From: Escherichia coli
GTDB lineage: Bacteria; Pseudomonadota; Gammaproteobacteria; Enterobacterales; Enterobacteriaceae
Assembly: GCF_048403405.1 (NCBI RefSeq)
Contig: NZ_CP183129.1
Direction: 5' to 3' (one strand)
DNA length: 64,000 bases
The translations under genes and the position numbers were made by a program. Shown here piece after piece: positions 2,503-35,929 of the stretch; within the stretch, counting starts at the first letter, position 1; each line of letters begins with the position of its first letter. The notes below the pieces were generated by a model, which saw only the letters and a program-made list of their open reading frames with translations, was not told the origin of the DNA and did not search any database.

Positions 2503-3046
2503 TCCTGAAGAAAAGACAACGCGAGCCTTTTATCCCCTGCCCGTCTTGGGGATGCTGCTGTTTTGCGCAGCCGGCGGCAGTCAGGCGGCATTAACGGTGG
2601 TGGCGGATTATGGCGGGCAACCGGCAGCACCTTTTTATGACGCGATAAATAATGCCCCGAATGAATGGACAGCAAAGCCGGCGTCCCGCCCTCTGCCGTC
2701 CGTGATGGCCCCGTCAATGGTGTTGCCGGTTGAGACACCGGAAATGACGCCGGGGGAGGTGGATGACCGCGTCCTGCATTTACCGGGGATTGGGGCACTG
2801 TATCTGGTGGGGGATGATCCGTTATCCCGGGCATGGCTCACACAGCACGCAGCCCAGCTGAATGCAATGAATGCGGCCGGGATGGTGGTGAATGTGAAAT
2901 CGGAAACCGGGTTACAGGCGCTTCAGGCGCTGGCTCAGGGAGGACTGCTCTCCCCAGCTTCTGGCACCGATTTAGCTCACCGTCTTCAGTTATCACATTA
3001 CCCAGTTCTGATCACGGAAACCGGGTTGACCCAGCAGGTGAAGTAA
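2492..3046 (+). CDS. conserved ICE protein (PFL_4695-like family, tentative)
   Basis: 184-aa secreted protein overlapping the previous gene stop; family assignment from memory only. Confidence 0.4.
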   Translation: MRNNPEEKTTRAFYPLPVLGMLLFCAAGGSQAALTVVADYGGQPAAPFYDAINNAPNEWTAKPASRPLPSVMAPSMVLPVETPEMTPGEVDDRVLHLPGIGALYLVGDDPLSRAWLTQHAAQLNAMNAAGMVVNVKSETGLQALQALAQGGLLSPASGTDLAHRLQLSHYPVLITETGLTQQVK

Positions 3047-3239
3047 TGTTACCGCCGATATGGCCTTCAGATGGGGTTGACTCCCCGGCATTCTGGTTGG
3101 CCGTGCTGATGTGGTGCGTGTTCTTTGTTGTGATGAGACTCCTGGGGAAAAAAAACCGTCCTGCCCGCCGTCATCGTCACTGTCACGGGAAAGAATCGCG
3201 TGTACCGGAAAAAGAAAATCCGTCAGATCCTCCCTGGGG

Positions 3240-3383
3240 TTGAGTGCAGTGAGCACATTGTTTTCCGGACGTGTCGGTGAATTTTCAAACAGTGTTTCCA
3301 GTGGAAACGCTGGATGATTTTTGAACACTGTTTCCACTGGAAACACCGGTGAATTTTTAAACACTGTTTTCCGGGGTAACACC
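3240..3383. promoter_or_regulatory. Array of about four 36-bp tandem units containing GTTTCC-N3-GGAAAC palindromes, upstream of traD; candidate operator array or oriT
   Basis: gtttccagtggaaac at 3294-3308 and gtttccactggaaac at 3330-3344, flanked by degenerate copies (ttttccggacgtg, ttttccggggtaac); related copy at 29781-29854. Confidence 0.55.
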
Positions 3384-3401
3384 AAAAAAGAGTTTGAGAG
3401 A

Positions 3402-5549
3402 ATGAGTGATCGTTATGTGATAGAGGCCTGGCTGCGACCGGCGGTGGAATTGAACAGTGCTCTGGTGTCCGGCGGGGCGGCGTTTGTGTGTGCGGTAGCG
3501 CCCTGGGCAGTGGCATTGTCTCCGTCCGTGAGTTATGTCACCGCCGGTGCGTTTGCCGGTTTTTCCGCATTGCGGGCACATCAGGGATTCCGGGTATTAC
3601 GTTACCGCCGGAATCTCCGGCGTCTGCCCCGCTATCAGGTGACGTCGGCACAGGTGCCGGTCAGCCGGCAGCGTCTGTTTCTGGGAAAAGGGTTTCAGTG
3701 GCAGCAAAAACACACGCAACGCCTGCTGGAAACCCAGCGTCCGGAAGTGGAGCGGTATGTTCAGCCGCCGGCACATTACCGGCTGGCCCGGCAGTTTGAA
3801 CTCCGTTTTGAATCCCGTTTTCCGGCGGTTTGCCGGCTTTTGCAAAAAGACAGTTGGCTGAATCCGGTCCGCCCGCTGACGCCGGTGGGGGGGAATCCGG
3901 TGTTACACGGTGTGGAGCCGGATGAGGTGAATGTGACCATGGATTTGCGTGAACGGGTTGGTCATATGCTGGTACTGGGGACCACCCGTGTCGGCAAAAC
4001 CCGTCTGGCGGAAGTGCTGATCACTCAGGATATCCGCCGGGGGAATATCACGATTGTTTTTGATCCGAAAGGGGATGCGGATTTATTGCGCCGGATGTGG
4101 GCGGAAGCGCATCGTGCGGGGCGCAGTGAGGAGTTTTATGTTTTTCACTTGGGCTGGCCTGATATCAGTGCCCGTTATAACGCCATCGGGCGTTTTGGCC
4201 GAGTATCGGAAGTCGCGGGGCGGGTTGCCGGCCAGTTATCCGGGGAAGGGAACAGCGCGGCGTTCCGGGAGTTTGCCTGGCGGTTTGTTAATATCATTGC
4301 CCGGGCACTGGTTGCTCTGGGGGAGCGTCCGGATTATGCCAAAATTTTACGTTATGTCACCAATATCGGGGAACTCTATCAGACATATTCGATGCAGGTG
4401 ATTAAAGCACAACTACCTGATTTGTTTGCCCAAATCGAGAATGCGCAGAACGCGCTGACGGTCGAGGATGTGCCCCGTCATCTGCAAAGTGATCCGAAAG
4501 CTGTGGCTATCTGGGCAACGGAGCTGGCGTTAAGTAGTGAGAAAGGGAAAAAAATCTATGATCCGATTTTGGACGGGCTGCGCAGTGCGATCCGTTATGA
4601 CCGGACCTATTTTGATAAAATAGTGGCTTCTCTGCTGCCGTTACTGGAAAAACTGACTACCGGAAAAACTGCCGCCCTGTTGTCGCCGGATTACACCAAT
4701 ATGCAGGATCCCCGTCCGATTTTTGACTGGCAGCAGGTGATTCGGAAAAAAGGGATTGTATATGTCGGGCTGGATGCGTTATCGGATGCGGAAGTGGCGG
4801 CAGCGGTGGGGAATTCCATGTTTGCGGATTTGGTCTCGGTAGCCGGGCATATTTATAAATTCGGGACTCAGGATGGACTGCCGGAGGATGAGCACGCCGG
4901 AAAATTACCGATCAGCCTGCATTGCGATGAATTTAATGAACTGATGGGGGATGAATTTATTCCGTTACTGAACAAGAGCGGCGGCGCGGGGATTGAAGTG
5001 ACGGCCTACACACAGACCTGGTCTGATATTGAAGCCCGGCTGGGGAATGCGGCGAAATCGGCGCAGGTCACCGGTAACTTTAATACGCTGGTGATGTTGC
5101 GTGTCCGTGAACTGATGACCGCGAAATTACTGACGGAACAGTTACCGGAAGTGGATATTTACACCAAAACCCTGGTATCCGGGATCACCGATATTTCCAA
5201 TCCGAGGCAGGGGAGTGATTTTACCTCCAATACCCAGGACAGGGTCAGTATGGTGGCTAAACCGCTGCTGTTACCGGCAGATATTATTCAGTTACCGAAA
5301 GGACAGGCGTTTGCGCTGCTGGAAGGCGGGAAGTTATGGAAAATCAGGATGCCCCTGCCGGCGGCAGAGGCTGATGCCCTGATGCCACCGGATTTACAAA
5401 AAATCGCACAGTATATGGAGAAAAATTACCGTACCGGCGAAACTTGGTGGACTGCGTCATCATTTTCGGATGCGCGGTATGACAGCGGCGGTATGAATGT
5501 GGCTGAGATGGCACCGGATACCGAAGGGGGCAACGATGGCAACTGCTGA
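3402..5549 (+). CDS. traD: conjugative coupling protein TraD-like (VirD4 family ATPase)
   Basis: Walker A GTTRVGKT, N-terminal TM segments, about 715 aa; start placed at MSDRYV after the repeat array with a gagag RBS. Confidence 0.85.
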   Translation: MSDRYVIEAWLRPAVELNSALVSGGAAFVCAVAPWAVALSPSVSYVTAGAFAGFSALRAHQGFRVLRYRRNLRRLPRYQVTSAQVPVSRQRLFLGKGFQWQQKHTQRLLETQRPEVERYVQPPAHYRLARQFELRFESRFPAVCRLLQKDSWLNPVRPLTPVGGNPVLHGVEPDEVNVTMDLRERVGHMLVLGTTRVGKTRLAEVLITQDIRRGNITIVFDPKGDADLLRRMWAEAHRAGRSEEFYVFHLGWPDISARYNAIGRFGRVSEVAGRVAGQLSGEGNSAAFREFAWRFVNIIARALVALGERPDYAKILRYVTNIGELYQTYSMQVIKAQLPDLFAQIENAQNALTVEDVPRHLQSDPKAVAIWATELALSSEKGKKIYDPILDGLRSAIRYDRTYFDKIVASLLPLLEKLTTGKTAALLSPDYTNMQDPRPIFDWQQVIRKKGIVYVGLDALSDAEVAAAVGNSMFADLVSVAGHIYKFGTQDGLPEDEHAGKLPISLHCDEFNELMGDEFIPLLNKSGGAGIEVTAYTQTWSDIEARLGNAAKSAQVTGNFNTLVMLRVRELMTAKLLTEQLPEVDIYTKTLVSGITDISNPRQGSDFTSNTQDRVSMVAKPLLLPADIIQLPKGQAFALLEGGKLWKIRMPLPAAEADALMPPDLQKIAQYMEKNYRTGETWWTASSFSDARYDSGGMNVAEMAPDTEGGNDGNC

Positions 5550-10059: not shown

Positions 10060-11552
10060 AAGTGAAATCCAATACGCTGGTCAAAATTCTGGTGCCGTCC
10101 GCACTGGCGTTGGCGGTGCTGATTGGTATCAAAAGCTGCCAGCCCGACACGCCGGTCACCGGCAGCGGACAGGACAACCTGTCTCAGTCAATCAATGACC
10201 TTGACCCAGGGGAGCTGAAGTCACTCGGGATTGAGGGGGATACCCCGGCCGATACACTGAGGACGCTGATTGGCACTATGAAAACGGTACGTGACCGTCA
10301 GGCGGAATTGATCGCCCAGAATGAGAAATTGCTGGAAGAGAATGCGCAGCTGCGTAACCGGCAGCAGAATGTGTCGGGGCAGATCCAGTCTGCGGTGGCT
10401 TCCGTCCGTCAGGAAGCGGAGAGTCAGCAGCGTGCCCTGCAACAGGAGCAGCAGACACTGATGCGGCGTCTGGATAGCCTGGGGGAAACGCTGACAGCAT
10501 CAGGTGGTCAGCCGGCTCAGGGCAGCGGACAAGGCGATATTCCGCTGGGACTGGGGCTGGATACCGGGGGCAGCGGACTGACGGTGAAAGACGGGTTGCT
10601 GTGGGCTGAGCCGCAGGATGCACAACCGGCTGAACCGGGGCGGATGGTGAACGGACAACCGGCTAAACCGGCGTTTCCGACCTCTTTTCTGGAGGATAAC
10701 GCCATTACCCGTCAGAAAGCGGAACTGGACCGGGTGGCCAAAAATCAGCGCACGCTCTCCGGTACAGTGGACGGTGAGGCCCATACCGAACCGGCGTACA
10801 CGATACCGGAGAATGCCACCCTGGTGGGCAGCCAGGCGATGACGGCGTTGCTGGGGCGGGTGCCCATTGACGGTAAAGTGACCGATCCGTATCCGTTCAA
10901 GGTGGTGGTGGGAAAAGACAACCTCACGGCGAACGGCATTGAGTTACCGGATGTGGAAGGGGCGGTGATCAGCGGCTCGGCCACCGGTGACTGGACATTG
11001 TCCTGTGTGCGCGGGGATATCACCTCGATCACCTTTGTTTTTACGGACGGCACGATCCGCACGGTGCCGAAGCCGGCTGACCGGACGGACGGCGGCAGTC
11101 AGGCCAACAGCGGACAGAATGCCCGTAATAACGGCGGGTCGCTCGGCTGGATTTCAGATGAGAGCGGGATCCCGTGTATCAGCGGTGAACGTAAAACCAA
11201 TGCCGGCACCTATCTGCCGACCCTGTTTGCCCTGACGGCAGCGGCCTCGGCCGGGGATGCGATGTCGCAGAGTCAGTATACCGCGCAGAACAACGGGTAC
11301 GGTATCACCTCCTCGCTCTCTGGGGATGCGGGGAAAGCGGCGCTGGGCAGTGCCATCGGCGGCGGGTTTAAGGATGTGGCGGACTGGGTGAAATCCCGCT
11401 ACGGGCAGACCTTTGATGCGGTGTATGTGCCGCCGGGGCAGAAAGTCGCGGTGCATATCAGCCGTCAGATCCCGGTGGATTATGAATCGCAGGGACGCCG
11501 GGTGAATTACGGTTTTTCACTGACAGAGGGTGAGGAAGGAGGTCTGGAGTGA
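10056..11552 (+). CDS. ICE pore protein with coiled coil (PFL_4709-like; VirB10-like role possible)
   Basis: 498 aa, N-terminal TM, Q-rich coiled coil, Gly-rich C-terminal domain. Confidence 0.5.
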   Translation: MKVKSNTLVKILVPSALALAVLIGIKSCQPDTPVTGSGQDNLSQSINDLDPGELKSLGIEGDTPADTLRTLIGTMKTVRDRQAELIAQNEKLLEENAQLRNRQQNVSGQIQSAVASVRQEAESQQRALQQEQQTLMRRLDSLGETLTASGGQPAQGSGQGDIPLGLGLDTGGSGLTVKDGLLWAEPQDAQPAEPGRMVNGQPAKPAFPTSFLEDNAITRQKAELDRVAKNQRTLSGTVDGEAHTEPAYTIPENATLVGSQAMTALLGRVPIDGKVTDPYPFKVVVGKDNLTANGIELPDVEGAVISGSATGDWTLSCVRGDITSITFVFTDGTIRTVPKPADRTDGGSQANSGQNARNNGGSLGWISDESGIPCISGERKTNAGTYLPTLFALTAAASAGDAMSQSQYTAQNNGYGITSSLSGDAGKAALGSAIGGGFKDVADWVKSRYGQTFDAVYVPPGQKVAVHISRQIPVDYESQGRRVNYGFSLTEGEEGGLE

Positions 11553-12468: not shown

Positions 12469-15335
12469 TGGGATTTTCATTATTCCGCTCACGCCGGAAA
12501 GCGCAGGCGGTTTCTGCTGAAAAAACGGATGAAAACAAGGCTGACAAAACCGTACACCGCAGTACACCGGCAGAGAATGCCGGTTTAGGCCGTCAGCCGC
12601 TTTCCCGGCCGGGAAAAATGACCCGGGCGGATGAGCAGAAGATTTACCATGCGAATCCGTCCTTTATTGATTACCTGCCCTGGGTGGAATTTCTGGATGA
12701 GGAGCAATGCCTGCTGCTTGATGACGGGGTGTCGGTCGGGGCGGTGTATGCCGTTGAGCCGGCGCCGACGGAAGGGCGCTCTGCCGGCCGTCTGCTCGAA
12801 ATCCGGGATGCGGTGGAGGATGCGCTTCAGGACAGTCTGGATGAGCATGATGATAACCCGTGGGTGGTGCAGTTTTTTTGTCAGGATGAGGACGACGTGA
12901 GCGTCACACTGGCCACATTGCGGGACTATATCCTGCCGGCGGCCCGGGGCACCGCGTTTACCGAAGCCTGGCTGACCGAAATGGCGCGTCATTTACGGGG
13001 GATTGCCCGTCCGGAAGGGCTGTTTAAGGACACGGAGGTGACCGGACAACCCTGGCGCGGACAGCAGCGCCGGACCCGGATGGTGGTTTACCGCCGGCTG
13101 GGGAACAGCTATACCGATCCGATGCCGCCGGTGGCGATGCTCAATCAGATGTGTGACCGGCTGGTCAGCAGTCTGGGCAGTGCCGGCGTGCAGTGTGTCC
13201 GCCAGGACGGGAGGCAGGTGCATCAGTGGCTGCTGCGTCATTTCAATCCGGCCCCTGACTGGGTGGACCGGGAGACGCTGTACCGGGAAGGGGCGTACTG
13301 GCCGGCGGCGGAGGAAGCCCCGGGCACCCTGCCGGTGCTGAAGGATTTTGCGGAAACGCTGTGGTTTACCCCGCCCCGGTCGGATGTGGAAAACGGCGTG
13401 TGGTGGTTTGATAACCTGGCGCACGGTGTGGTGAATATCGAAAAACTGCGTAAAGCCCCGGGGCCGGGGCACCTGACCGGGGAGCAGAAGCGCGGTGACA
13501 AAAATATCAATGCGCTGATGGACCTGTTTCCGGAAGGGACGATGCTGTCGATGACCATCGTCACACAGCCTCAGGATACGCTGGAGCAGGAATTTACCCG
13601 GCTGGGGAAAAACTCGGTGGGGGAAAACACCGACTCGCAACGTACCCGCCGGGACGTGGAAACCGCCAGAGGTTTACTGGGGCACCGCCATAAGCTTTAC
13701 CGGGCCTCCCTGTCATTGCTGCTGCGTGCCGGCTCGGTGGAGGAACTGAACAAAAAGCGCGTGGATCTGACGGCCACGCTGCTGAATGCCGGTCTGGAGC
13801 CGGTGAAGCCGGAATATGATGTGGCGCCGCTGAACGGGTATCTGCGTGCCCTGCCGATGTGTTTTGACCCGCAGACGGATAAAAAACACTGGTATACCCG
13901 GCTGACCTGGGTACAGCACCTGGCCGGATTACTGCCGGTGACCGGGCGCACCAGCGGCACCGGGCATCCCGGCTGGAGTTTCTTTAACCGGGGCGGCGGG
14001 GTGCTGACCTTTGATCCGCAGAATAAACAGGATCGTACCCAGAATGCGCATCTGCTGTTATTCGGTCCCACCGGGGCCGGTAAATCCGCCACCTTATGCG
14101 CACAGTTATCGCAGCTGATGGCGGTCCGCCGTCCGCGTCTGTTTATTGCGGAGGCCGGTAACTCCTTTGGTTTACTGGCGGACTATTACGCCAGTCTGGG
14201 GCTGAGTGTCAATAAGGTCAGTGTCAAGCCCGGCAGCGGGGTGCGTCTGCCGCTGTTTGCGGATGCGCATCAGCTGCTGATGATGGATGAACAGCGTCTG
14301 GCACTGAATGCGGATGAACTGCCAGAGACGGACAGTGAATCTGAGGATGATGACGGGCAGCGTGACATTCTGGGGGAAATGGAAATCTCCGCCCGCATGA
14401 TGATCACCGGCGGGGATGTGCGGGAAGAAGCGGAGCTGAAGCGGGCTGACCGGGCGATGATCCGCCGGGCGCTGATGGCGGGGGCCCGGGCGTCTTATGC
14501 CGCCGACCGGCAGATGCTGCCGGCGGATTTGCAGGAGGCGCTGTATGCCCTCTCCCGGGGGGAAGGTGAAGAGGAAGGGCGGGCATTAAATCCGCAGCGC
14601 CGGGCGAAAGCGGCCGAAATGGCGGAATCCCTGGGGATGTTTACCGAACCGGGCAGTTTTGAGCATGAGCTGTTTAATCTGCCGGGGGAGCTGTGGCCGG
14701 AGGCGGATGTGACCCTGATTGATTTGGGGCACCTGGCGCGGGAAGGGTATGAGGCCCAGATGGCGCTGACGATGGTGAGTCTTATCAACTCCATCAACAA
14801 TATTGCCGAGCGGGATCAGTACCGGGCCCGGGACATTAATTTTGTGGTGGATGAGGCGCATATCGTGACGGTCAACCCGCTGTTATCCCCCTATGTGACC
14901 AAAGTGGTGAAAATGTGGCGGAAACTGGGGGCCTGGCTGTGGCTGGCGACCCAGAACCTCGATGACTATCCGGACTGTGCCGAGAAAATGCTCAATATGG
15001 CGGAGTGGTGGGTGTGTCTGACGATGCCGCAGAAAGAGGTGGAGGCAATCGCCCGCTTTAAGACGCTCAGTGAGGAGCAGAAACAGGTGCTGCTGTCCGC
15101 AGCCAAACTCTCCGGCTGTTACACGGAAGGGGTGGTGCTGGCGCGGAAAGTGGAGGCGCTGTTCCGGGTGGTACAGCCGAGCTTATATCTGGCGCTGGGG
15201 ATGACGGAAAAAGAGGAGAAGCAGCAACGGCGGGTGCTGATGGAGCAATACGGATGCAGTGAGCTGGAAGCGGCGTTCAGGGTGGCAGATGAACTTGACC
15301 GGAAACGGGGGTTACCGCCCCGGGTGCCGGGATGA
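12465..15335 (+). CDS. traC: conjugative transfer ATPase TraC/VirB4-like
   Basis: 956 aa, Walker A GPTGAGKS, Walker B-like DEAH region, size and position typical. Confidence 0.85.
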   Translation: MMGFSLFRSRRKAQAVSAEKTDENKADKTVHRSTPAENAGLGRQPLSRPGKMTRADEQKIYHANPSFIDYLPWVEFLDEEQCLLLDDGVSVGAVYAVEPAPTEGRSAGRLLEIRDAVEDALQDSLDEHDDNPWVVQFFCQDEDDVSVTLATLRDYILPAARGTAFTEAWLTEMARHLRGIARPEGLFKDTEVTGQPWRGQQRRTRMVVYRRLGNSYTDPMPPVAMLNQMCDRLVSSLGSAGVQCVRQDGRQVHQWLLRHFNPAPDWVDRETLYREGAYWPAAEEAPGTLPVLKDFAETLWFTPPRSDVENGVWWFDNLAHGVVNIEKLRKAPGPGHLTGEQKRGDKNINALMDLFPEGTMLSMTIVTQPQDTLEQEFTRLGKNSVGENTDSQRTRRDVETARGLLGHRHKLYRASLSLLLRAGSVEELNKKRVDLTATLLNAGLEPVKPEYDVAPLNGYLRALPMCFDPQTDKKHWYTRLTWVQHLAGLLPVTGRTSGTGHPGWSFFNRGGGVLTFDPQNKQDRTQNAHLLLFGPTGAGKSATLCAQLSQLMAVRRPRLFIAEAGNSFGLLADYYASLGLSVNKVSVKPGSGVRLPLFADAHQLLMMDEQRLALNADELPETDSESEDDDGQRDILGEMEISARMMITGGDVREEAELKRADRAMIRRALMAGARASYAADRQMLPADLQEALYALSRGEGEEEGRALNPQRRAKAAEMAESLGMFTEPGSFEHELFNLPGELWPEADVTLIDLGHLAREGYEAQMALTMVSLINSINNIAERDQYRARDINFVVDEAHIVTVNPLLSPYVTKVVKMWRKLGAWLWLATQNLDDYPDCAEKMLNMAEWWVCLTMPQKEVEAIARFKTLSEEQKQVLLSAAKLSGCYTEGVVLARKVEALFRVVQPSLYLALGMTEKEEKQQRRVLMEQYGCSELEAAFRVADELDRKRGLPPRVPG

Positions 15336-23957: not shown

Positions 23958-24176
23958 CGTTGCTTAATGCAACATTGCCAATGCTTCGGTTGTCTGAGAG
24001 AAGCGCCTACGGGTGACAACAATGCCAATCCGGCAATCTGAGAGGAACGCCTACGGGTGATTGCCACTGCCAATCCTCGGGTCATCTGAGACGAGGGCCT
24101 ACGGGCGATGACAGAACTCCGTTCGTCCTTGAAATCGACGGAGGGTGATAACAGAATAGCGTTATCATCAGGATTA
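23958..24176 (+). repeat. Structured direct repeat copy 1 (three tandem hairpin units plus two further hairpins)
   Basis: Near-identical to 26392-26612; three about 45-nt units with stems gttgtc/gacaac, ggcaatc/gattgcc, gtcatc/gatgac around a conserved loop tgaga..gcctacggg. Confidence 0.8.
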
Positions 24177-24436: not shown

Positions 24437-24824
24437 AAGTGCATACGCTCAGAACGCTTCAATACTGGTCTTACAGCAAAACTGACAATCTGACAGACAT
24501 GTAATGCATTGCTCAGAACGGCTGAAAGTCTTTCAACGCTCAACGTTTATATGATGATAAAAACGTATAACATTATGAAAAAAGGAGAAAAAACGACACG
24601 ATACCAAGGCGACGTCAGGAAACTGACGGACGGAGGTGCCCTGATAACGGGGGCCGGTCTGATGACCGCAAACAGTTCAGAGAACTGATTTGATACCTCT
24701 CAACAACTCAACCTTTTATCGCCCCGGTGCTCAGGTATCTGTCAGGTCGCAGGATGCGCAATATAAAACCGTCGCGCCGGGAAAAGGTAACCAGTTGAGA
24801 GCGAAAGAGGCGGAGAATCAGAGA

Positions 24825-26391: not shown

Positions 26392-26612
26392 CGTTGCGTA
26401 ATGCAACTTGCCAATGCTTCGGTTGTCTGAGAGAAGCGCCTACGGGTGACAACAATGCCAATGTTCCGGCAATCTGAGAGGAACGCCTACGGGTGATTGC
26501 CACTGCCAATCCTCGGGTCATCTGAGACGGGAGCCTACGGGCGATGACAGAACTCCGTTCGTCCTTGAAATCGACGGAGGGTGATAACAGAATAGCGTTA
26601 TCATCAGGATTA
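26392..26612 (+). repeat. Structured direct repeat copy 2
   Basis: Same orientation as 23958-24176; differs by 3 substitutions and two small indels. Confidence 0.8.
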
Positions 26613-28614: not shown

Positions 28615-29127
28615 ATGGGATATACACATTATTTTACACAAAAACAAAGCGTTGACCCCCTGATGTGGCAGAACTTCCGTGAACATCTGGACAAGCTCTA
28701 TCACCACTATCTGGCCAATCCCATATCCGCAGAGCAGATTTGCGGCGGATACCCAGATAAACCTATTGTGTTGTGTGATGGCCTGGAGGAAAAACGGCTG
28801 AATGATGGCTCATTATTCACCGACGACGGTGAGGCGCTTTGTTTTAACGGTAATGCGGCTGATGACATGAATCATGAGACGTTTATTGTTCAGCGCGAAA
28901 TCCCCGTAGAGGACTACTGGGATTTCTGCAAGACAGCATACAAACCCTATGACGTGTTTGTAGTCGCGGCATTACTGTTGTTGTACAACCTGTGCCCGGG
29001 ATATTTTTCGGTCTCTTCTGACGGGGATATCCGGGACTGGCAGCCGGTGCTGGACTATGTCAGTCAGGTATTTCCTTATCTTATCCTGACGTTACCGGAA
29101 GGGATAGGTTTACCGGAGGCAGGATAA
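28615..29127 (+). CDS. hypothetical protein (ICE cargo)
   Basis: ORF with gagga RBS 8 nt upstream of ATG 28615 (alternative ATG at 28600). Confidence 0.4.
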   Translation: MGYTHYFTQKQSVDPLMWQNFREHLDKLYHHYLANPISAEQICGGYPDKPIVLCDGLEEKRLNDGSLFTDDGEALCFNGNAADDMNHETFIVQREIPVEDYWDFCKTAYKPYDVFVVAALLLLYNLCPGYFSVSSDGDIRDWQPVLDYVSQVFPYLILTLPEGIGLPEAG

Positions 29128-29774
29128 TGGCCAGAGCCTGTACGATACGGGAACTGATAGCGGATTTATCCCGCTGCAATCCGGAGGCATTCGTCTTGTG
29201 TGAGATGTGGTTCCCCGATGATGTTACCTATGTTGATGAAACGGCTTGTCCGGCAGAGACACGGGCAACATTAACGCATGTTGCACATCATTTTGATGCG
29301 GAGCTGGGGATCAACTGGGACACGCTGGCGTGTGCGTTATCGTGTGTCAGAGATGCTGAGCAGAAGGGACTCGATATTTACTTTTATGCCAGTGAAAAGC
29401 GTGGTACAGACAAAAGCCGGATACCCGCCTCACGTTACGCAGAAGCGGACAGCGACGGCGATATTGAAGTCGGGTATTTCCGTAAGGTTAATGCGCTGTT
29501 TAAGTGGGTGCATGACCATATCGGGGCTTTTGAGAACTGTGAAAAGGTGCTGGTGACAGAGGCCCATCTGCGGGCTTTACAGCAGGACTTGCAGGCACTG
29601 ACACCGGAAAACTGTCAGACACGGTTCCCGACCACTGAGGGCTTTTTCTTTGGTTCAACGGCTTATGATGAGGCGTACTGGGCTGATGTGGAAGGCGTCA
29701 GACGCTGGCTGTCAGAGATAACGGAGACGTTTGACTTTGACGCAGAGTCACTGTTTTTTGTGGCCTGGTGGTAA
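29127..29774 (+). CDS. hypothetical acidic protein (ICE cargo)
   Basis: 215-aa ORF coupled to upstream gene. Confidence 0.4.
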   Translation: MARACTIRELIADLSRCNPEAFVLCEMWFPDDVTYVDETACPAETRATLTHVAHHFDAELGINWDTLACALSCVRDAEQKGLDIYFYASEKRGTDKSRIPASRYAEADSDGDIEVGYFRKVNALFKWVHDHIGAFENCEKVLVTEAHLRALQQDLQALTPENCQTRFPTTEGFFFGSTAYDEAYWADVEGVRRWLSEITETFDFDAESLFFVAWW

Positions 29775-29780
29775 TCAGGT

Positions 29781-29854
29781 AAGGTGTTTCCCCGGGAAGC
29801 ACTGAACACATTTTAATCAGTGTTTCCACTGGAAACGCCGGTTGAAAATTAACC
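29781..29854. promoter_or_regulatory. GTTTCC-N3-GGAAAC palindrome pair upstream of ardC, related to the traD-upstream array
   Basis: gtgtttccccgggaagcac then gtgtttccactggaaacgcc followed by ggttgaaaattaacc (inverse of ggtgaattttcaaac at 3276). Confidence 0.5.
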
Positions 29855-29926
29855 ATATTGTTTTTTCACCTGATGGTGTATCTCACCGTCAGGACGGGAT
29901 ACACCTTTTTTATTGAGGGTATTCCG

Positions 29927-30901
29927 ATGAAAAAATCTGACCGTAAACGCCGTCCGGCAGCGGATAAGCCGGTTCGCGATATTTATCAGGAAGTGACTGA
30001 CCGTATTGTGGCCGCGCTGGAAAAAGGCACCCGTCCGTGGAAACGACCATGGCGGCCGTCGGAAGGGACAGGCACCGGTTTTCCGGTGAACGCCCTGACC
30101 GGTCATTCCTACCAGGGGATAAATGTGCTGCTGTTATGGTTGTCGGCGGCGGAGCAGGGCTTTGGTTACGATATCTGGCTGACTTACCGTCAGGCACAGC
30201 AACTGGGTGGCCATGTCCGTAAAGGCGAAATGGCGACGAATACTGTGATATTCAAACCGGTGAAGGTGCCGGCAAAAGACCGTCACGGTGAGCTGCTGCG
30301 GGATGAACACGGTGAGGTGGTGATGACGGAGGTGCCGATGATAAAGGCGAATCCGTTATTTAACATAGCCCAGTGTGATGACCTGCCGGCGCATTTTTAC
30401 GAAAACCGGCGACTACCCGGAGAGGAGACAGCAGGGATAACCCTGCCGGCCACGCACCGGGTGCTGGATATCCTGAATGCCAGCGGCGTGAAGGTGACCA
30501 GTGCGGCGCAGAACCGGGCGTATTACAGTCCGTCACAGGACCGGATTGTGATGCCGCTGTCGTCACAGTTTGACCGGAATGCCGATTACCAGGCCACCTT
30601 ACTGCATGAGTTGGTGCACAGTACCGGTCATCCGTCCAGGCTGGCCCGTGAAGGCATCACCTCATCGTCCCTGAAGTTTGGTGACCCGCTGTACAGTTTT
30701 GAGGAGCTGGTTGCGGAAATGGGCAGCGCTTTTCTTTGTGCGCAGTTAAGCGTCGAGGGAGAAGTGAACCATGAAAGCTATCTTGACAGCTGGCTGCGGG
30801 TACTGAAATCGGACAAAAAAGCGTTGTTCCGGGCCGCCGGGCAGGCCCGCCAGGCCTGTGAGTTTTTACTGAATGTGGCCGCATCCCGACAGGCCGCGTA
30901 G
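29927..30901 (+). CDS. ardC: ArdC-like antirestriction protein (ssDNA-binding N-domain plus zincin-like metalloprotease domain)
   Basis: HExxH motif in LLHELVHSTGH, size about 325 aa, basic N-terminus; RBS gaggg. Confidence 0.7.
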   Translation: MKKSDRKRRPAADKPVRDIYQEVTDRIVAALEKGTRPWKRPWRPSEGTGTGFPVNALTGHSYQGINVLLLWLSAAEQGFGYDIWLTYRQAQQLGGHVRKGEMATNTVIFKPVKVPAKDRHGELLRDEHGEVVMTEVPMIKANPLFNIAQCDDLPAHFYENRRLPGEETAGITLPATHRVLDILNASGVKVTSAAQNRAYYSPSQDRIVMPLSSQFDRNADYQATLLHELVHSTGHPSRLAREGITSSSLKFGDPLYSFEELVAEMGSAFLCAQLSVEGEVNHESYLDSWLRVLKSDKKALFRAAGQARQACEFLLNVAASRQAA

Positions 30902-30910
30902 GAGACTGCG

Positions 30911-31210
30911 ATGAACAAAATGACCATTATCCGCTTTCAGTTACTGGTACATCAGTTACTGCAAGTGCATTACGGCATTACGCTGAGTGATACCGGATTG
31001 TCCGATGATGCTGAGGTGTCCCGGATGATTGAACTCGGGATATCGCCGGTATCGGTGGTCAACCGTCTGGTGGATAAGTACCACCTGGATAAACTGAATG
31101 CATCCTGTTATCTGCCGGCATCCCCGTATGTCAGTGACAGCGATGCCTTACTTGCACAGGCTCAGCTGAGCGGTGCCATTAACCCGGATGTCATGCCGGA
31201 TAATCCTTAA
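30911..31210 (+). CDS. hypothetical protein
   Basis: 99-aa ORF coupled downstream of ardC. Confidence 0.4.
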   Translation: MNKMTIIRFQLLVHQLLQVHYGITLSDTGLSDDAEVSRMIELGISPVSVVNRLVDKYHLDKLNASCYLPASPYVSDSDALLAQAQLSGAINPDVMPDNP

Positions 31211-31294: not shown

Positions 31295-32296
31295 ATGCCA
31301 AACTGGTGCTCGAACCGACTTGACATCACCTTACACAACGCGGCGGATATGCCGGCTCTTAAACACTGGATATATGCGGATGATGGGATACCCGCCTGGC
31401 AGACGGCGATAGCACAAAGTCTGCATTTGTTGCTGGCCGGCTGCGCGGGGATACTGAAACCGGTCAGACCGCTGTCTTTTCCGCCGTTACCGGAACTGAC
31501 TTCATACGGTGCAACCGGGCCTGTTTCCCCGGGAAACACGGCTTTCACGCACTGGGTTGACCTGCTGATGACTGCACCGGATTTGACACCGTCATGTTGT
31601 CAGCAAATCCATCAGTGGTATCAGATGTGGTTATCTGAAGGCGGGGCGTACCATTCCTGGGACTCGCTGACGGCGACGCAGAAAGCGAGACTGTCCCCGT
31701 TGTTATCGGGAAGCAGTTTTGACTGGCTTAACCGGTTTACCGGAGAGGATGAGAGCCGGGTGGCGACAGCCTGGGAGGATATTCAGTACCTTCGCAGTAC
31801 CGGAGAAGCCATACCGATGGATATGCGGACTCTGTTACCGACCAGCCTTGCGGCTGAATTACACGGTTTTAACGGCTGTTTATGGAAAACACCGGAGGTC
31901 ATCTGGCGGCAGGCGCGCTGGCAGGCGTTTGCCCCCGGTAACAGTACATATCACCTTTATCAGTGCCGTTATGGTGTGAAATGGCCGAACGGCAGTGGTT
32001 TTCACTGTATTGATGGCGGGTATGCGACGGAGTTATCCGCAGAGTTTGATACTCCGTGGGGGCCGCCGTCAGCAGCGGTTTTGTGTGCTCTGTCTGCGCG
32101 TTTCCGCTGTCAGGTCCGTCATGTCTATGCCGAAGAAGGCTGTGGTTTCTGCGGATACAGCGAGTATGACCATGGCCGGTTAACCGACCATGAATCTGAT
32201 GAGATTGAGTTCAGTGATGAAGAGAATGAGGACGGTTTCCAGGATGTGACGGGACCGGACTATATTCTTGATTCATTGCCACATTACGGAGGGTGA
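31295..32296 (+). CDS. hypothetical protein (N-terminus MPNWCSN; possibly DUF1281-like, unverified)
   Basis: 333-aa ORF, Trp-rich N-domain, acidic C-terminus. Confidence 0.45.
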   Translation: MPNWCSNRLDITLHNAADMPALKHWIYADDGIPAWQTAIAQSLHLLLAGCAGILKPVRPLSFPPLPELTSYGATGPVSPGNTAFTHWVDLLMTAPDLTPSCCQQIHQWYQMWLSEGGAYHSWDSLTATQKARLSPLLSGSSFDWLNRFTGEDESRVATAWEDIQYLRSTGEAIPMDMRTLLPTSLAAELHGFNGCLWKTPEVIWRQARWQAFAPGNSTYHLYQCRYGVKWPNGSGFHCIDGGYATELSAEFDTPWGPPSAAVLCALSARFRCQVRHVYAEEGCGFCGYSEYDHGRLTDHESDEIEFSDEENEDGFQDVTGPDYILDSLPHYGG

Positions 32297-32941: not shown

Positions 32942-34534
32942 ATGTTACCGTGGTTTCGTAAATCGCTTTCCCGGAAAGCGGAAGAGAAAACATTGCGTGT
33001 TTCCCCGGGAAACACGCAGGAAAGGCCATTATTTATCCGTGACAGTGACGGCTTTTATTTACCGCAGGCAGCTGACGTATTGCTGACCACACCGCAGCGG
33101 CAAAACTGGTTACAGCAAATCAGCCGGGTGGTAGCGTTACCGGATAACCAGTACCGGGCACTTTGCCTGTCTCCTTTGCAGACGCTGGCAGAACGACTTC
33201 AGTGTGTGCCGGCATCAAAAACCGGGAAATATGCCGGCGAAGGGGGATTGCTGGATTTAACGCTGAATACGACAGCCTGGTGTATGCGGATGTCCCAGAA
33301 AGAGATGCTGCCCCGCGGGCTTCCGTCGGAAGAGCAGAGCCGTCAGTTCAGCGCCTGGAATGTGTGTGTTTTTTATACCGGACTGTTTTACTGGTTACCG
33401 TTAACGGCACAGTTTGAGGGACAACTGAACAGCCTGTCGGCGTGGCAGCCGGGGATGAGTGCGCCCACCGTACCGTATCGTTTTCGCTTTCATGAGCCGG
33501 TGCCGGATATGACGCATTTTCGCCGGACGACGGGGGCCATGATGGCTTTCCGGCTATTACCGGAGAAGGTAATCCACTGGTTGTCGGGTACACCAAAGGC
33601 GCTTCAGGCGTTGTCTGACGTGGTGACCGAGCCGGTAAACGGTGATAATGATTTACAGCGTGTGCTGAATGAGGCTCTGGCTGCGTTCCCCGCCGGTGCA
33701 TTGCCGGCATTTTCTTCCGTTGTTTCTATGTCAGCGCCTGATGCTTCGTCTTCAGTGCTATCAGGGCAGCCGGAGAATGATATCGCGTCATTGGCGCCTG
33801 CTGAATTGGCGCAAAAGCCACAACCTGAAACTCCGTCTGTAACATCTGTATTGCCTCCGGAGTCTGTTACTTCAGAAAAAACAGAGAACGGAATTCACTG
33901 CGATATACCGCTAATGGTAGTTGCAGAAGCAGAAGGTGCGGTTGTCCATGGGGCACTTGATTCTGCTGATGAAAAAACTGTCTCAGATATGTCTCCTCCG
34001 TTATCTGAGGATATGAAATATGCACTTGAATTATCAGGTTTAATGCCGGAAATCTTATCTGATACTCAGACGGGCAATCGTGATGAGAAGGATGAACAGC
34101 GCGAAAACTGTCTGAGTATAAAAAATGAAGGAGAGGCTTTCTGGGCGTGGTTTAAGTCCGGATTATTGGGCGGAAAACTGGCAATAAATACGCCGGATGC
34201 GAAGGTTCACTGTGTCATGGAGTATTTGTTTTGCCAGAGTCCGGCTGTTTTTTATCAGTACATACAGGAGGCGGGTAAAAATCCGGATGATATCGGCCAT
34301 ATTATTTCTTCTTTTGAATCCCTTAAATTGCACCGGATTATTCGTCATGATACCCGACAAACAGGGCATTTCAGGGCTCGAATTTATGGTGAAAAACTGA
34401 ATCCGCTGAGTGATAACAAAACATTAATTACGTTATCCCATAAAAAAATCAATGGTTACATGATTAAAGGACGTCAGATTTTTGGCATGAATATGCCGGA
34501 GGAATCATTGTTTATTCGTATTGTCGGAAGTTAA
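32942..34534 (+). CDS. large ICE protein next to the integrase; putative relaxase-like (positional inference only)
   Basis: 530-aa ORF with aagagg RBS and AT-rich promoter region; no recognisable relaxase motif found by eye. Confidence 0.3.
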   Translation: MLPWFRKSLSRKAEEKTLRVSPGNTQERPLFIRDSDGFYLPQAADVLLTTPQRQNWLQQISRVVALPDNQYRALCLSPLQTLAERLQCVPASKTGKYAGEGGLLDLTLNTTAWCMRMSQKEMLPRGLPSEEQSRQFSAWNVCVFYTGLFYWLPLTAQFEGQLNSLSAWQPGMSAPTVPYRFRFHEPVPDMTHFRRTTGAMMAFRLLPEKVIHWLSGTPKALQALSDVVTEPVNGDNDLQRVLNEALAAFPAGALPAFSSVVSMSAPDASSSVLSGQPENDIASLAPAELAQKPQPETPSVTSVLPPESVTSEKTENGIHCDIPLMVVAEAEGAVVHGALDSADEKTVSDMSPPLSEDMKYALELSGLMPEILSDTQTGNRDEKDEQRENCLSIKNEGEAFWAWFKSGLLGGKLAINTPDAKVHCVMEYLFCQSPAVFYQYIQEAGKNPDDIGHIISSFESLKLHRIIRHDTRQTGHFRARIYGEKLNPLSDNKTLITLSHKKINGYMIKGRQIFGMNMPEESLFIRIVGS

Positions 34535-35853: not shown

Positions 35854-35929
35854 TGGTGCCCGGACTCGGAATCGAACCAAGGACACGGGGATTTTCAATC
35901 CCCTGCTCTACCGACTGAGCTATCCGGGC
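35854..35929 (-). tRNA. pheV: tRNA-Phe (GAA anticodon)
   Basis: Reverse complement reads GCCCGGATAGCTCAGTCGGTAGAGCAGGGGATTGAAAATCCCCGTGTCCTTGGTTCGATTCCGAGTCCGGGCACCA, the canonical E. coli tRNA-Phe, 76 nt with CCA. Confidence 0.95.

Follow-up and report, generated by a model that had tools for sequence, protein, structure and literature searches.

Control of transfer in one family of ICEs (integrative and conjugative elements) is essentially understood only for two of its members, ICEclc and PAPI-1. In ICEclc, the ParB-like protein BisD (550 amino acids) binds two bisS palindromes (GAGCTATCCCCnGGGGATAGCTC), which are described as lying within the inrR (bisS-1) and ssb (bisS-2) genes, hydrolyses cytidine triphosphate (CTP) with bisS DNA and spreads over about 50 kb along the direction of transcription; it accumulates at transfer-competence promoters, is required for their activation and, together with BisC (DUF2857), activates about 11 of them, including those of the type IV secretion system (T4SS) genes, traI and int (PMC12409273, PMC7423338). 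In PAPI-1, TprA, a protein of the Arc/ribbon-helix-helix (RHH) type, recognises a site within 33 bp of DNA upstream of pilL2, to which it binds (Dangla-Pelissier et al. 2021, PMC8565334). The present analysis concerns two palindromes of the GTTTCC-N3-GGAAAC family, which stand in front of the anti-restriction gene ardC in an ICEPm1-type ICE carried by an Escherichia coli chromosome (contig NZ_CP183129.1; the 64-kb stretch analysed is referred to as the window). These palindromes are considered rather probable to be secondary copies of the bisS-type (parS-like) site of the ICE, predicted to serve as loading sites of its BisD homologue. This reading draws on the sites themselves, their enrichment and conservation, their positional homology to bisS, the BisD-like features of the encoded protein and the covariation between the half-site and the recognition helix, all of which were computed in the present study.

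The window comprises E. coli chromosomal DNA with the right 36 kb of the ICE, whose homology to the copy in strain HM670 stops at about 35977; the left 57 kb of the 92.8-kb element lie outside the window and were read from the HM670 genome. The ICE contains MPF_G-type transfer genes (TIGR037xx), taaP, an nrp/polyketide synthase (PKS) siderophore cluster and a gene for a MobH-class relaxase, a gene content which, together with the insertion at the tRNA-Phe gene, is taken by us to be the pattern of ICEPm1. The features in front of ardC are as follows.

29784-29802: bisS-like palindrome 1 before ardC, GTGTTTCCCCGGGAAGCAC / gtgtttccccgggaagcac, of the 8-1-8 form TGTTTCCC-C-GGGAAGCA
29820-29838: bisS-like palindrome 2 before ardC, GTGTTTCCACTGGAAACGC, with a perfect 15-bp core at 29822-29836
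29839-29854, plus strand: A-rich remainder of the 36-bp repeat unit, CGGTTGAAAATTAACC, similar to the array spacers
29927-30901, plus strand: ardC, with an ArdcN domain (Pfam, 2.8e-38) and a zincin metallopeptidase domain (4.1e-40)

The palindromic strings that a preliminary description of this locus had listed are present where it had placed them, the second, quoted as gtgtttccactggaaacgcc, spanning 29820-29839, and belong to the GTTTCC-N3-GGAAAC family. The core of palindrome 1 (29786-29800) carries a single mismatch to this motif, which in the relative E. coli M19 sits in the opposite arm (GTTTCTCCGGGAAAC), while the core of palindrome 2 is unchanged in M19; the starts of the two cores are spaced by 36 bp. 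The centre of the perfect palindrome lies 98 nucleotides (nt) 5' of the ardC ATG (29927-29929), and the described stretch ends 73 nt 5' of the same ATG, in agreement with the earlier estimate of about 75 nt. The gene, previously called ArdC-like, encodes a bona fide ArdC as judged by its ArdcN and zincin metallopeptidase domains. A third string, ggttgaaaattaacc / GGTTGAAAATTAACC (29840-29854), had been included in the operator set and is to be removed from it, being merely the A-rich part of the repeat unit, copied along with the palindrome. The ardC copy retains, as ggTTGAAAATTAACC, the A-rich stretch of the unit of the primary array of the ICE, and this remainder matches the spacers of that array (gcTCAAAACTTAACC) and of the ICEHin1056 array (CAAAAATTAACC). 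The A-rich part occurs solely beside palindromes, with no lone copy, and was for this reason rejected as an independent box, possibly one for BisC.

Chance is excluded as the source of the motif, since five exact copies of GTTTCC-N3-GGAAAC occur in the window against 0.00 expected from 100 dinucleotide-preserving shuffles (11 against 3.1 expected with up to two mismatches). The exact copies are all on the ICE side of the window (1 to about 35977), and the 28-kb chromosomal flank has none. When every palindrome of the 92.8-kb ICE was counted de novo, this one came out as the commonest, with nine perfect copies; with degenerate copies counted, the whole ICE holds 11 sites in five clusters. The sites in the window other than those at ardC are associated with the features listed below.

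3275-3383: traD-proximal array of three 36-bp units in inverted orientation, with cores at 3294-3308 and 3330-3344 and a degenerate core at 3366-3380
3402-5549, plus strand: traD, encoding the type IV coupling protein
31521-31539: intragenic palindrome CTGTTTCCCCGGGAAACAC (core 31523-31537) in the DUF1281 gene, reading V-S-P-G-N-T and kept in M19
32997-33019: perfect 23-bp palindrome of the 11-1-11 form, GCGTGTTTCCC-C-GGGAAACACGC (core 32999-33013), in codons 19-26 of traI, encoding the MobH-type relaxase

The last base of the traD array lies 20 nt 5' of the traD ATG, and the repeat units of this array run in the orientation opposite to those at ardC. The copy number of the array varies in exact 36-bp steps from 3 to 15.5, the latter (about 560 bp) being found in E. 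coli M19, and strain AHB10 has a perfect third unit where that of the window is degenerate. The palindromes within the DUF1281 gene and traI are read in the same frame, as V-S-P-G-N-T, and since these segments are not conserved in the DUF1281 and TraI homologues from other ICEs, the intragenic copies argue for selection on the DNA and not on the protein. The ardC and the intragenic sites are kept in E. coli M19 (about 90-94% identity over the compared segments). The primary cluster, outside the window, consists of three perfect units of 36 bp, which follow the STY4528-family gene directly, and one site 163 bp before the PFL_4669 gene (locus L003, 20266-20354 and 21165, respectively). The repeat unit of ICEPm1 is the palindrome together with the A-rich stretch gcTCAAAACTTAACC, and the traD array is the same unit reversed.

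Scans for sigma-70-like promoters at 29600-30000 and 3040-3440 predicted none at the ardC or the traD array, a result which fits activator-dependent expression. A terminator-like hairpin followed by a T-run is present at 29732-29750, within the last codons of the open reading frame (ORF) upstream of ardC, and suggests that ardC opens a separate transcription unit. The preliminary description had tied ardC to the putative regulator of traD through a shared operator. The tie itself stands in part: the sites before both genes belong to the same palindrome family and are almost certainly read by one ICE-encoded recogniser, as the motif is the top palindrome of the ICE, is kept in a relative and changes its arms symmetrically across the ICE family, and ardC may be co-regulated with traD. 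The notion of a classical operator overlapping a promoter finds no support in these data. A loading site for ParB/BisD fits better than a promoter operator, given that the traD array lies 20 nt from the ATG, that no sigma-70 promoter is predicted, that the orientation varies, that the copy number is elastic and that intragenic copies exist.

The order of the module in ICEPm1, parA-dnaB/shi-bisD-bisC-STY4528-(sites)-PFL_4669, is that of ICEclc. The BisD homologue, encoded outside the window and upstream of the primary array, has 549 amino acids, matches the NCBIfam model TIGR03764 'ParB family' (7e-103) and is 100% identical to the versions in Proteus mirabilis and Providencia stuartii. It has the architecture of BisD, namely an N-terminal ParB domain, a long linker and a C-terminal domain within about 550 amino acids, and carries the CTP-pocket motifs G92NTR95 and E134NEVR138, as compared to G92NTR95 and E136NELR140 of ICEclc BisD; the GxxR and ENxxR motifs are invariant in 25 BisD homologues. 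Searches of BisD by phmmer against PDB and by Pfam ParBc gave no match, and the fold was shown by way of an AlphaFold2 (AF2) model of the first 300 residues (predicted local distance difference test, pLDDT, 87.6), for which the Foldseek matches were solely the ParB-family clamps Noc, KorB, ParB and Spo0J, with a probability of 1.0. The BisC homologue (DUF2857, 1e-56) is encoded 525 bp downstream of bisD.

The position of the sites was compared with that of bisS in an ICEclc-type locus (L087), which shares 98.5% identity with the element of P. xenovorans LB400. The exact published bisS sequence is found at 13630 of this locus, in the STY4528-to-PFL_4669 interval, about 140 bp before the PFL_4669 homologue and beside the PinR box, and a second copy is found 2 kb away, as published. 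Because the exact bisS occupies the same interval, the ICEPm1 palindromes are positional homologues of bisS. Both have long arms around one central base, in the 8-1-8 form in all ICEPm1 copies and in the 11-1-11 form at 32997-33019, bisS being 11-1-11, and the ICEPm1 motif also resembles chromosomal parS (TGTTCCAC/GTGGAACA vs TGTTTCCA-C-TGGAAACA). The likeness to ICEclc extends to the BisD of about 550 amino acids, the DUF2857 protein BisC, the occurrence of some intragenic sites and the comparable targets, which are the T4SS/coupling genes, traI and int.

A BisD-alignment scan of 100,044 species genomes yielded 80 loci, in all of which the gene order DnaB-BisD-BisC-STY4528-PFL_4669-TopB is kept. 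Palindromes of the 8-1-8 form, often in 36-bp tandem units, are present in nearly all the loci that hold the STY4528-to-PFL_4669 interval, a set of about 60 related ICEs. The array of each element has its own half-site, with changes that are symmetric in both arms. When the 10 kb on each side of bisD were examined, 58 loci had their element-specific palindrome in the interval and nowhere else, and the five exceptions lie just downstream. Examples of the arrays in the STY4528-to-PFL_4669 interval are given below.

Citrobacter plasmid-form relative: 2 units of 36 bp, TGTTGCCA-G-TGGCAACA
Pantoea: 3 units of 36 bp, TGTTGCAG-C-CTGCAACA
Salmonella SGI-4: about 11 units of 36 bp, TG(T/C)TGGCA-C-TGCCA(A/G)CA
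ICEHin1056: 4.6 units of 36 bp, TGTAAAG-GGG-CTTTACA followed by CAAAAATTAACC
pKLC102: 15 units of 57 bp, GGTGCCA-C-TGGCACC

The ICEPm1-type and the ICEclc-type sequences are bridged by Pseudomonas loci with CTATACCA-C-TGGTATAG. In three complete relatives, SGI-4 (81.8 kb), ICEHin1056 (59.4 kb) and the Citrobacter element (72 kb), the palindrome is limited to the primary array, and no such palindrome stands before the ardC gene of Citrobacter; the spread to traD, ardC, DUF1281 and traI is therefore a trait of the ICEPm1 lineage. In the accessible parts of the literature, pKLC102, PFGI-1 and ICEHin1056 have their arrays labelled as putative or postulated oriV, from the repeats alone. Their position and unit structure identify these arrays with the element described here; what differs is the published label of replication origin, whereas the present evidence speaks for loading sites of BisD, and one function does not preclude the other.

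Some further repeats were observed in the members of the family. Long 36-bp arrays are annotated in RefSeq as hypothetical protein genes in M19 (L094, 593-1151) and SGI-4 (L007, 16897-17331), and these are probably spurious ORFs made by the repeats. In three Pantoea/Enterobacter loci (L060, L061 and L074, about 10924-11125), an array of 3.5 36-bp units of TGTTGCCA-C-TGGCAACA is located inside the linker-coding part of bisD, and no array was found in the usual STY4528-to-PFL_4669 interval of these loci. A second conserved repeat, AGTTCGG-N3-CCGAACT, with a unit length of about 33 bp, recurs throughout the family within the STY4528-family genes (L006, 14763-14925; L010, 5344-5420; L021, L032, L034, L036, L043 and L068). 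It is of the type seen in the ICEclc 'bisS-3' candidate, which is not bound by BisD, and also in the PFGI-1 'oriV', in its first half.

For identification of the protein that reads the palindrome, all the alignment columns of six syntenic proteins were ranked by their association with the half-site bases. A first run mainly reflected the deep division of the loci into a Pseudomonas/ICEclc and an enterobacterial clade and was uninformative, and the ranking was repeated within the TG-type clade, using 42 representative loci. Residues 183-214 of BisD, which in the AF2 model comprise the second (recognition) helix of the helix-turn-helix (HTH) motif, H183-196, and the loop that follows, hold seven of the ten strongest residue-base associations. 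A is present at half-site position 6 in every locus with ...S-N-I-S-R-M, in three separate clades. The informative pairs of loci are as follows.

L032 and L034: one helix residue differs (VHNSN vs VHNSS) and one half-site base differs, A in the former and C in the latter (TGCTGACA vs TGCTGCCA)
L036 and L043, in one Serratia genome: PFL_4669 99.5%, BisC 97.8%, STY4528 95.9% and BisD 88% identical; the palindromes differ (TGTTGACA / TGCTGCCA)
L034 and L043: BisD 96% identical, with an identical helix; the palindrome is the same
L006 and L014: BisC 100% identical; the palindromes differ

PFL_4669 (AcaB) is ruled out as the specificity determinant by the second of these pairs and BisC by the last. 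Taken with the ranking, the pairs point to half-site specificity tracking the recognition helix of BisD and not BisC or PFL_4669.

By analogy with ICEclc, the BisD homologue of ICEPm1 is predicted to target the palindrome TGTTTCCACTGGAAACA, to close at such sites into a CTP-dependent clamp and to slide onto the adjacent DNA. BisD-CTP would load at 29784-29838 and slide mainly downstream through ardC-cbtA-DUF1281-traI-int, with the sites at 31523 and 32999 reinforcing the sliding clamp, and BisD with its partner BisC would switch on the transfer-competence operons, ardC being activated among them. In ICEPm1-type elements the site has spread from an ancestral array upstream of the PFL_4669/inrR-type gene to traD, ardC, DUF1281 and traI, and on the present reading one clamp system would in this manner reach traD, ardC and traI, and probably the integrase gene, even across about 45 kb of intervening cargo. 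The cargo is a plausible reason for the dispersal, as the spreading of ICEclc BisD follows transcription and much of the cargo between the primary array and the transfer genes lies on the opposite strand. In transfer-competent donor cells, ArdC would be produced alongside TraD and the relaxase.

A more general proposal, to which we would give an even chance, is that the 'oriV iterons' of the family (SPI-7, PAPI-1, pKLC102, ICEHin1056 and ICEPm1), known under this name for some twenty years, are bisS arrays, that the BisD helix and the half-site co-evolve in a readable code, and that ICEPm1 has turned a layout with a single array into a KorB-like distributed network, which loads the clamp right at traD, ardC and traI and so bypasses the cargo. 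In such a code, A at half-site position 6 would go with the Asn of ...S-N-I-S-R-M. As far as the literature could be searched, bisS is described only for ICEclc, and its assignment to ICEPm1 and to the 'oriV' arrays of the family appears to be new.

Comparable arrangements are known from plasmids. KorB of RK2 is a ParB-family CTP clamp and a global regulator that acts through OB, about a dozen dispersed palindromes located near promoters, at a distance from them or within genes, the OB sequence (TTTAGCSGCTAAA) being different from the ICEPm1 site. In sopC of the F plasmid, 12 units of 43 bp each contain an inverted repeat bound by SopB. KorB structures are among the best fold matches to the BisD model, and the comparison with KorB is also drawn in the literature; the differences are that KorB represses with KorA whereas BisD activates with BisC, that the protein subfamily is another and that RK2 is not known to have 36-bp arrays. 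The arrays of ICEPm1 resemble sopC in their tandem units with one palindrome each, in the (here predicted) binding of a ParB-family protein and in the variable copy number, and sopC differs in being a single partition locus that is not known to stand before transfer or anti-restriction genes. The TprA site of PAPI-1 is likewise the site of an ICE-encoded activator for transfer genes, in the same ICE family. ICEPm1, unlike pKLC102, has no Arc or yejK genes beside parB, and TprA was rejected as the binder because the yejK-Arc pair that precedes parB in pKLC102 is lacking.

Several points weigh against the assignment of the ardC palindromes to the bisS type, or restrict it. The ICEPm1 motif has no sequence similarity to the ICEclc bisS consensus beyond its architecture, the two being entirely different (TGTTTCCA-N-TGGAAACA in ICEPm1 vs GAGCTATCCCC-N-GGGGATAGCTC), and since the consensus match fails, membership is by context homology and not by sequence; such a mismatch would be expected if the site specificity had diverged along with the BisD helix. 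Identity between the BisD proteins of ICEPm1 and ICEclc is only about 36%. In ICEclc, bisS is present as two single copies and not in tandem arrays, whereas ICEPm1 has 36-bp arrays and predicted sites directly before traD and ardC, and the arrays may have a further or a different role, such as that of a centromere or in replication. No BisC-type promoter box could be defined in ICEPm1; the published ICEclc box is a weak palindrome, some copies of which have GTTTCC-like cores. The covariation comes from 42 related sequences, is correlative and is confounded by phylogeny, and STY4528, being 91-97% identical in the informative pairs, is only disfavoured as the determinant. The structure of the ardC leader, in turn, suggests that ardC is also controlled after the initiation of transcription.

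29861-29935, plus strand: strongly structured ardC leader, which pairs the Shine-Dalgarno (SD) sequence (GAGG) and the AUG

The RNA fold of 29855-29935 has a free energy of -34.8 kcal/mol (z = -6.4). The first hairpin of the leader is kept in the ardC leaders of Citrobacter and SGI-4, with compensatory changes in 6 of the 16 pairs among four sequences only, and a search of the leader against Rfam gave no family match. As the hairpin is kept in relatives without ardC palindromes, it would represent an extra layer of control independent of the palindromes.

Among the other explanations, it is unlikely that the sites, though bound by BisD, serve only as a centromere or for clamping of the excised circular ICE, together with the ParA of the ICE, with no role in the transcription of ardC and traD. 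The arrays do look like plasmid centromeres in their tandem palindrome units and variable copy number, the ICE does encode a ParA, and a clamping or partition-like role for BisD-bisS is discussed by Antar et al. (PMC12409273). However, partition needs one cluster, as is found in SGI-4, ICEHin1056 and the Citrobacter element, whereas the extra copies of ICEPm1 are not randomly placed, those at traD and ardC standing immediately before the gene and that of traI at its 5' end; in ICEclc, moreover, BisD is needed for promoter activation and gathers at the transfer-competence promoters. The location of the primary array directly after the STY4528-family gene, whose product has a weak HTH_36 match, and the annotation of the homologous arrays of pKLC102, PFGI-1 and ICEHin1056 as putative or postulated oriV would agree with the repeats being oriV iterons bound by this 'replication protein', the copies at ardC and traD then being autoregulatory or handcuffing sites of Rep. 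This is quite unlikely, since the oriV assignment was made by sequence inspection only, as far as the accessible text of the publications goes, and the homologous ICEclc sites are experimentally bound by BisD and stimulate its CTPase; the 36-bp period and the perfect palindromes are unlike directional iterons of about 22 bp, and the strongest covariation is with the BisD helix and not with the columns of STY4528, which is 96-97% identical in pairs with different palindromes.

There is very little likelihood that the palindromes form a classical operator for another factor of the ICE, such as the AcaB/InrR-like PFL_4669, AlpA or an unannotated small protein, which as a dimer would repress or activate the promoters of ardC and traD. 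The sites do lie upstream of genes, the one located 163 bp before the PFL_4669 gene would make autoregulation possible, and AcaB, the Pfam name of that protein, is a known activator of IncC plasmids. Against this, the palindromes differ between loci in which PFL_4669 (L036/L043) or BisC (L006/L014) is nearly or fully identical, a Pfam search of ten small ORFs around ardC gave no match to a DNA-binding domain, a TprA-type Arc/RHH gene is missing beside the parB gene of ICEPm1, unlike in pKLC102, and perfect intragenic copies and 15-copy arrays are atypical of operators. Formation of hairpins in nucleic acid (terminators, attenuators, repetitive extragenic palindromic (REP)-like or single-stranded DNA elements) in place of protein binding is hardly to be expected. 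The units at traD were flagged as terminator-like, with a hairpin followed by a T-run, and symmetric changes in the arms would keep the pairing as well. Yet the inner CA-N-TG bases are conserved across the family though they are unable to pair around a loop of 1 nt, the orientation differs between traD and ardC, the coding strand of the primary arrays shows A-runs in place of T-runs, there is covariation between the half-site and a protein helix, and ICEclc provides an experimental precedent for protein binding. The loading of BisD at secondary bisS-type sites is the favoured explanation of the palindromes before ardC.

Other features of the ICE and its surroundings were recorded. The tRNA-Phe gene that marks the right end and insertion site of the ICE lies on the minus strand.

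35854-35929, minus strand: tRNA-Phe, ICE right end and insertion site

A gene for a CbtA-family toxin (30911-31210) lies directly 3' of ardC, with no annotated antitoxin gene beside it. A second ardC, a frameshifted pseudogene, is located in the cargo region outside the window (L002, 7174-8095), with no bisS-like palindrome nearby. Upstream of the ardC block, Rfam motifs were found on the plus strand, two of them STAXI (23958-24115 and 26392-26551; 123 and 112 bits, respectively) and one EFASI (24593-24744; 78 bits). What looks like a 48-bp tandem repeat at 26426-26545 belongs to a STAXI copy; in the left part of the ICE, a similar repeat stands before the STY4534 gene (L003, 25257-25376). A megablast search of 29000-31000 against plasmids gave no match, and the element is chromosomal in E. 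coli.

ICEs of this family spread virulence and resistance cargo among Proteus, Providencia, Morganella, E. coli, Salmonella (SGI-4, SPI-7), Pseudomonas (PAPI-1, pKLC102) and Haemophilus. If the assignment is true, the ParB-CTP clamp mechanism of ICEclc, with its long-range activation, would extend to the enterobacterial branch of the family, the long-standing 'oriV' annotation would be corrected, and dozens of natural protein-site pairs would become available for studies on the evolution of ParB specificity. ArdC would be predicted to be made in the donor as a part of transfer competence, and ICEPm1 would show how distant transfer and anti-restriction genes may be held under one switch after the gain of a large cargo.

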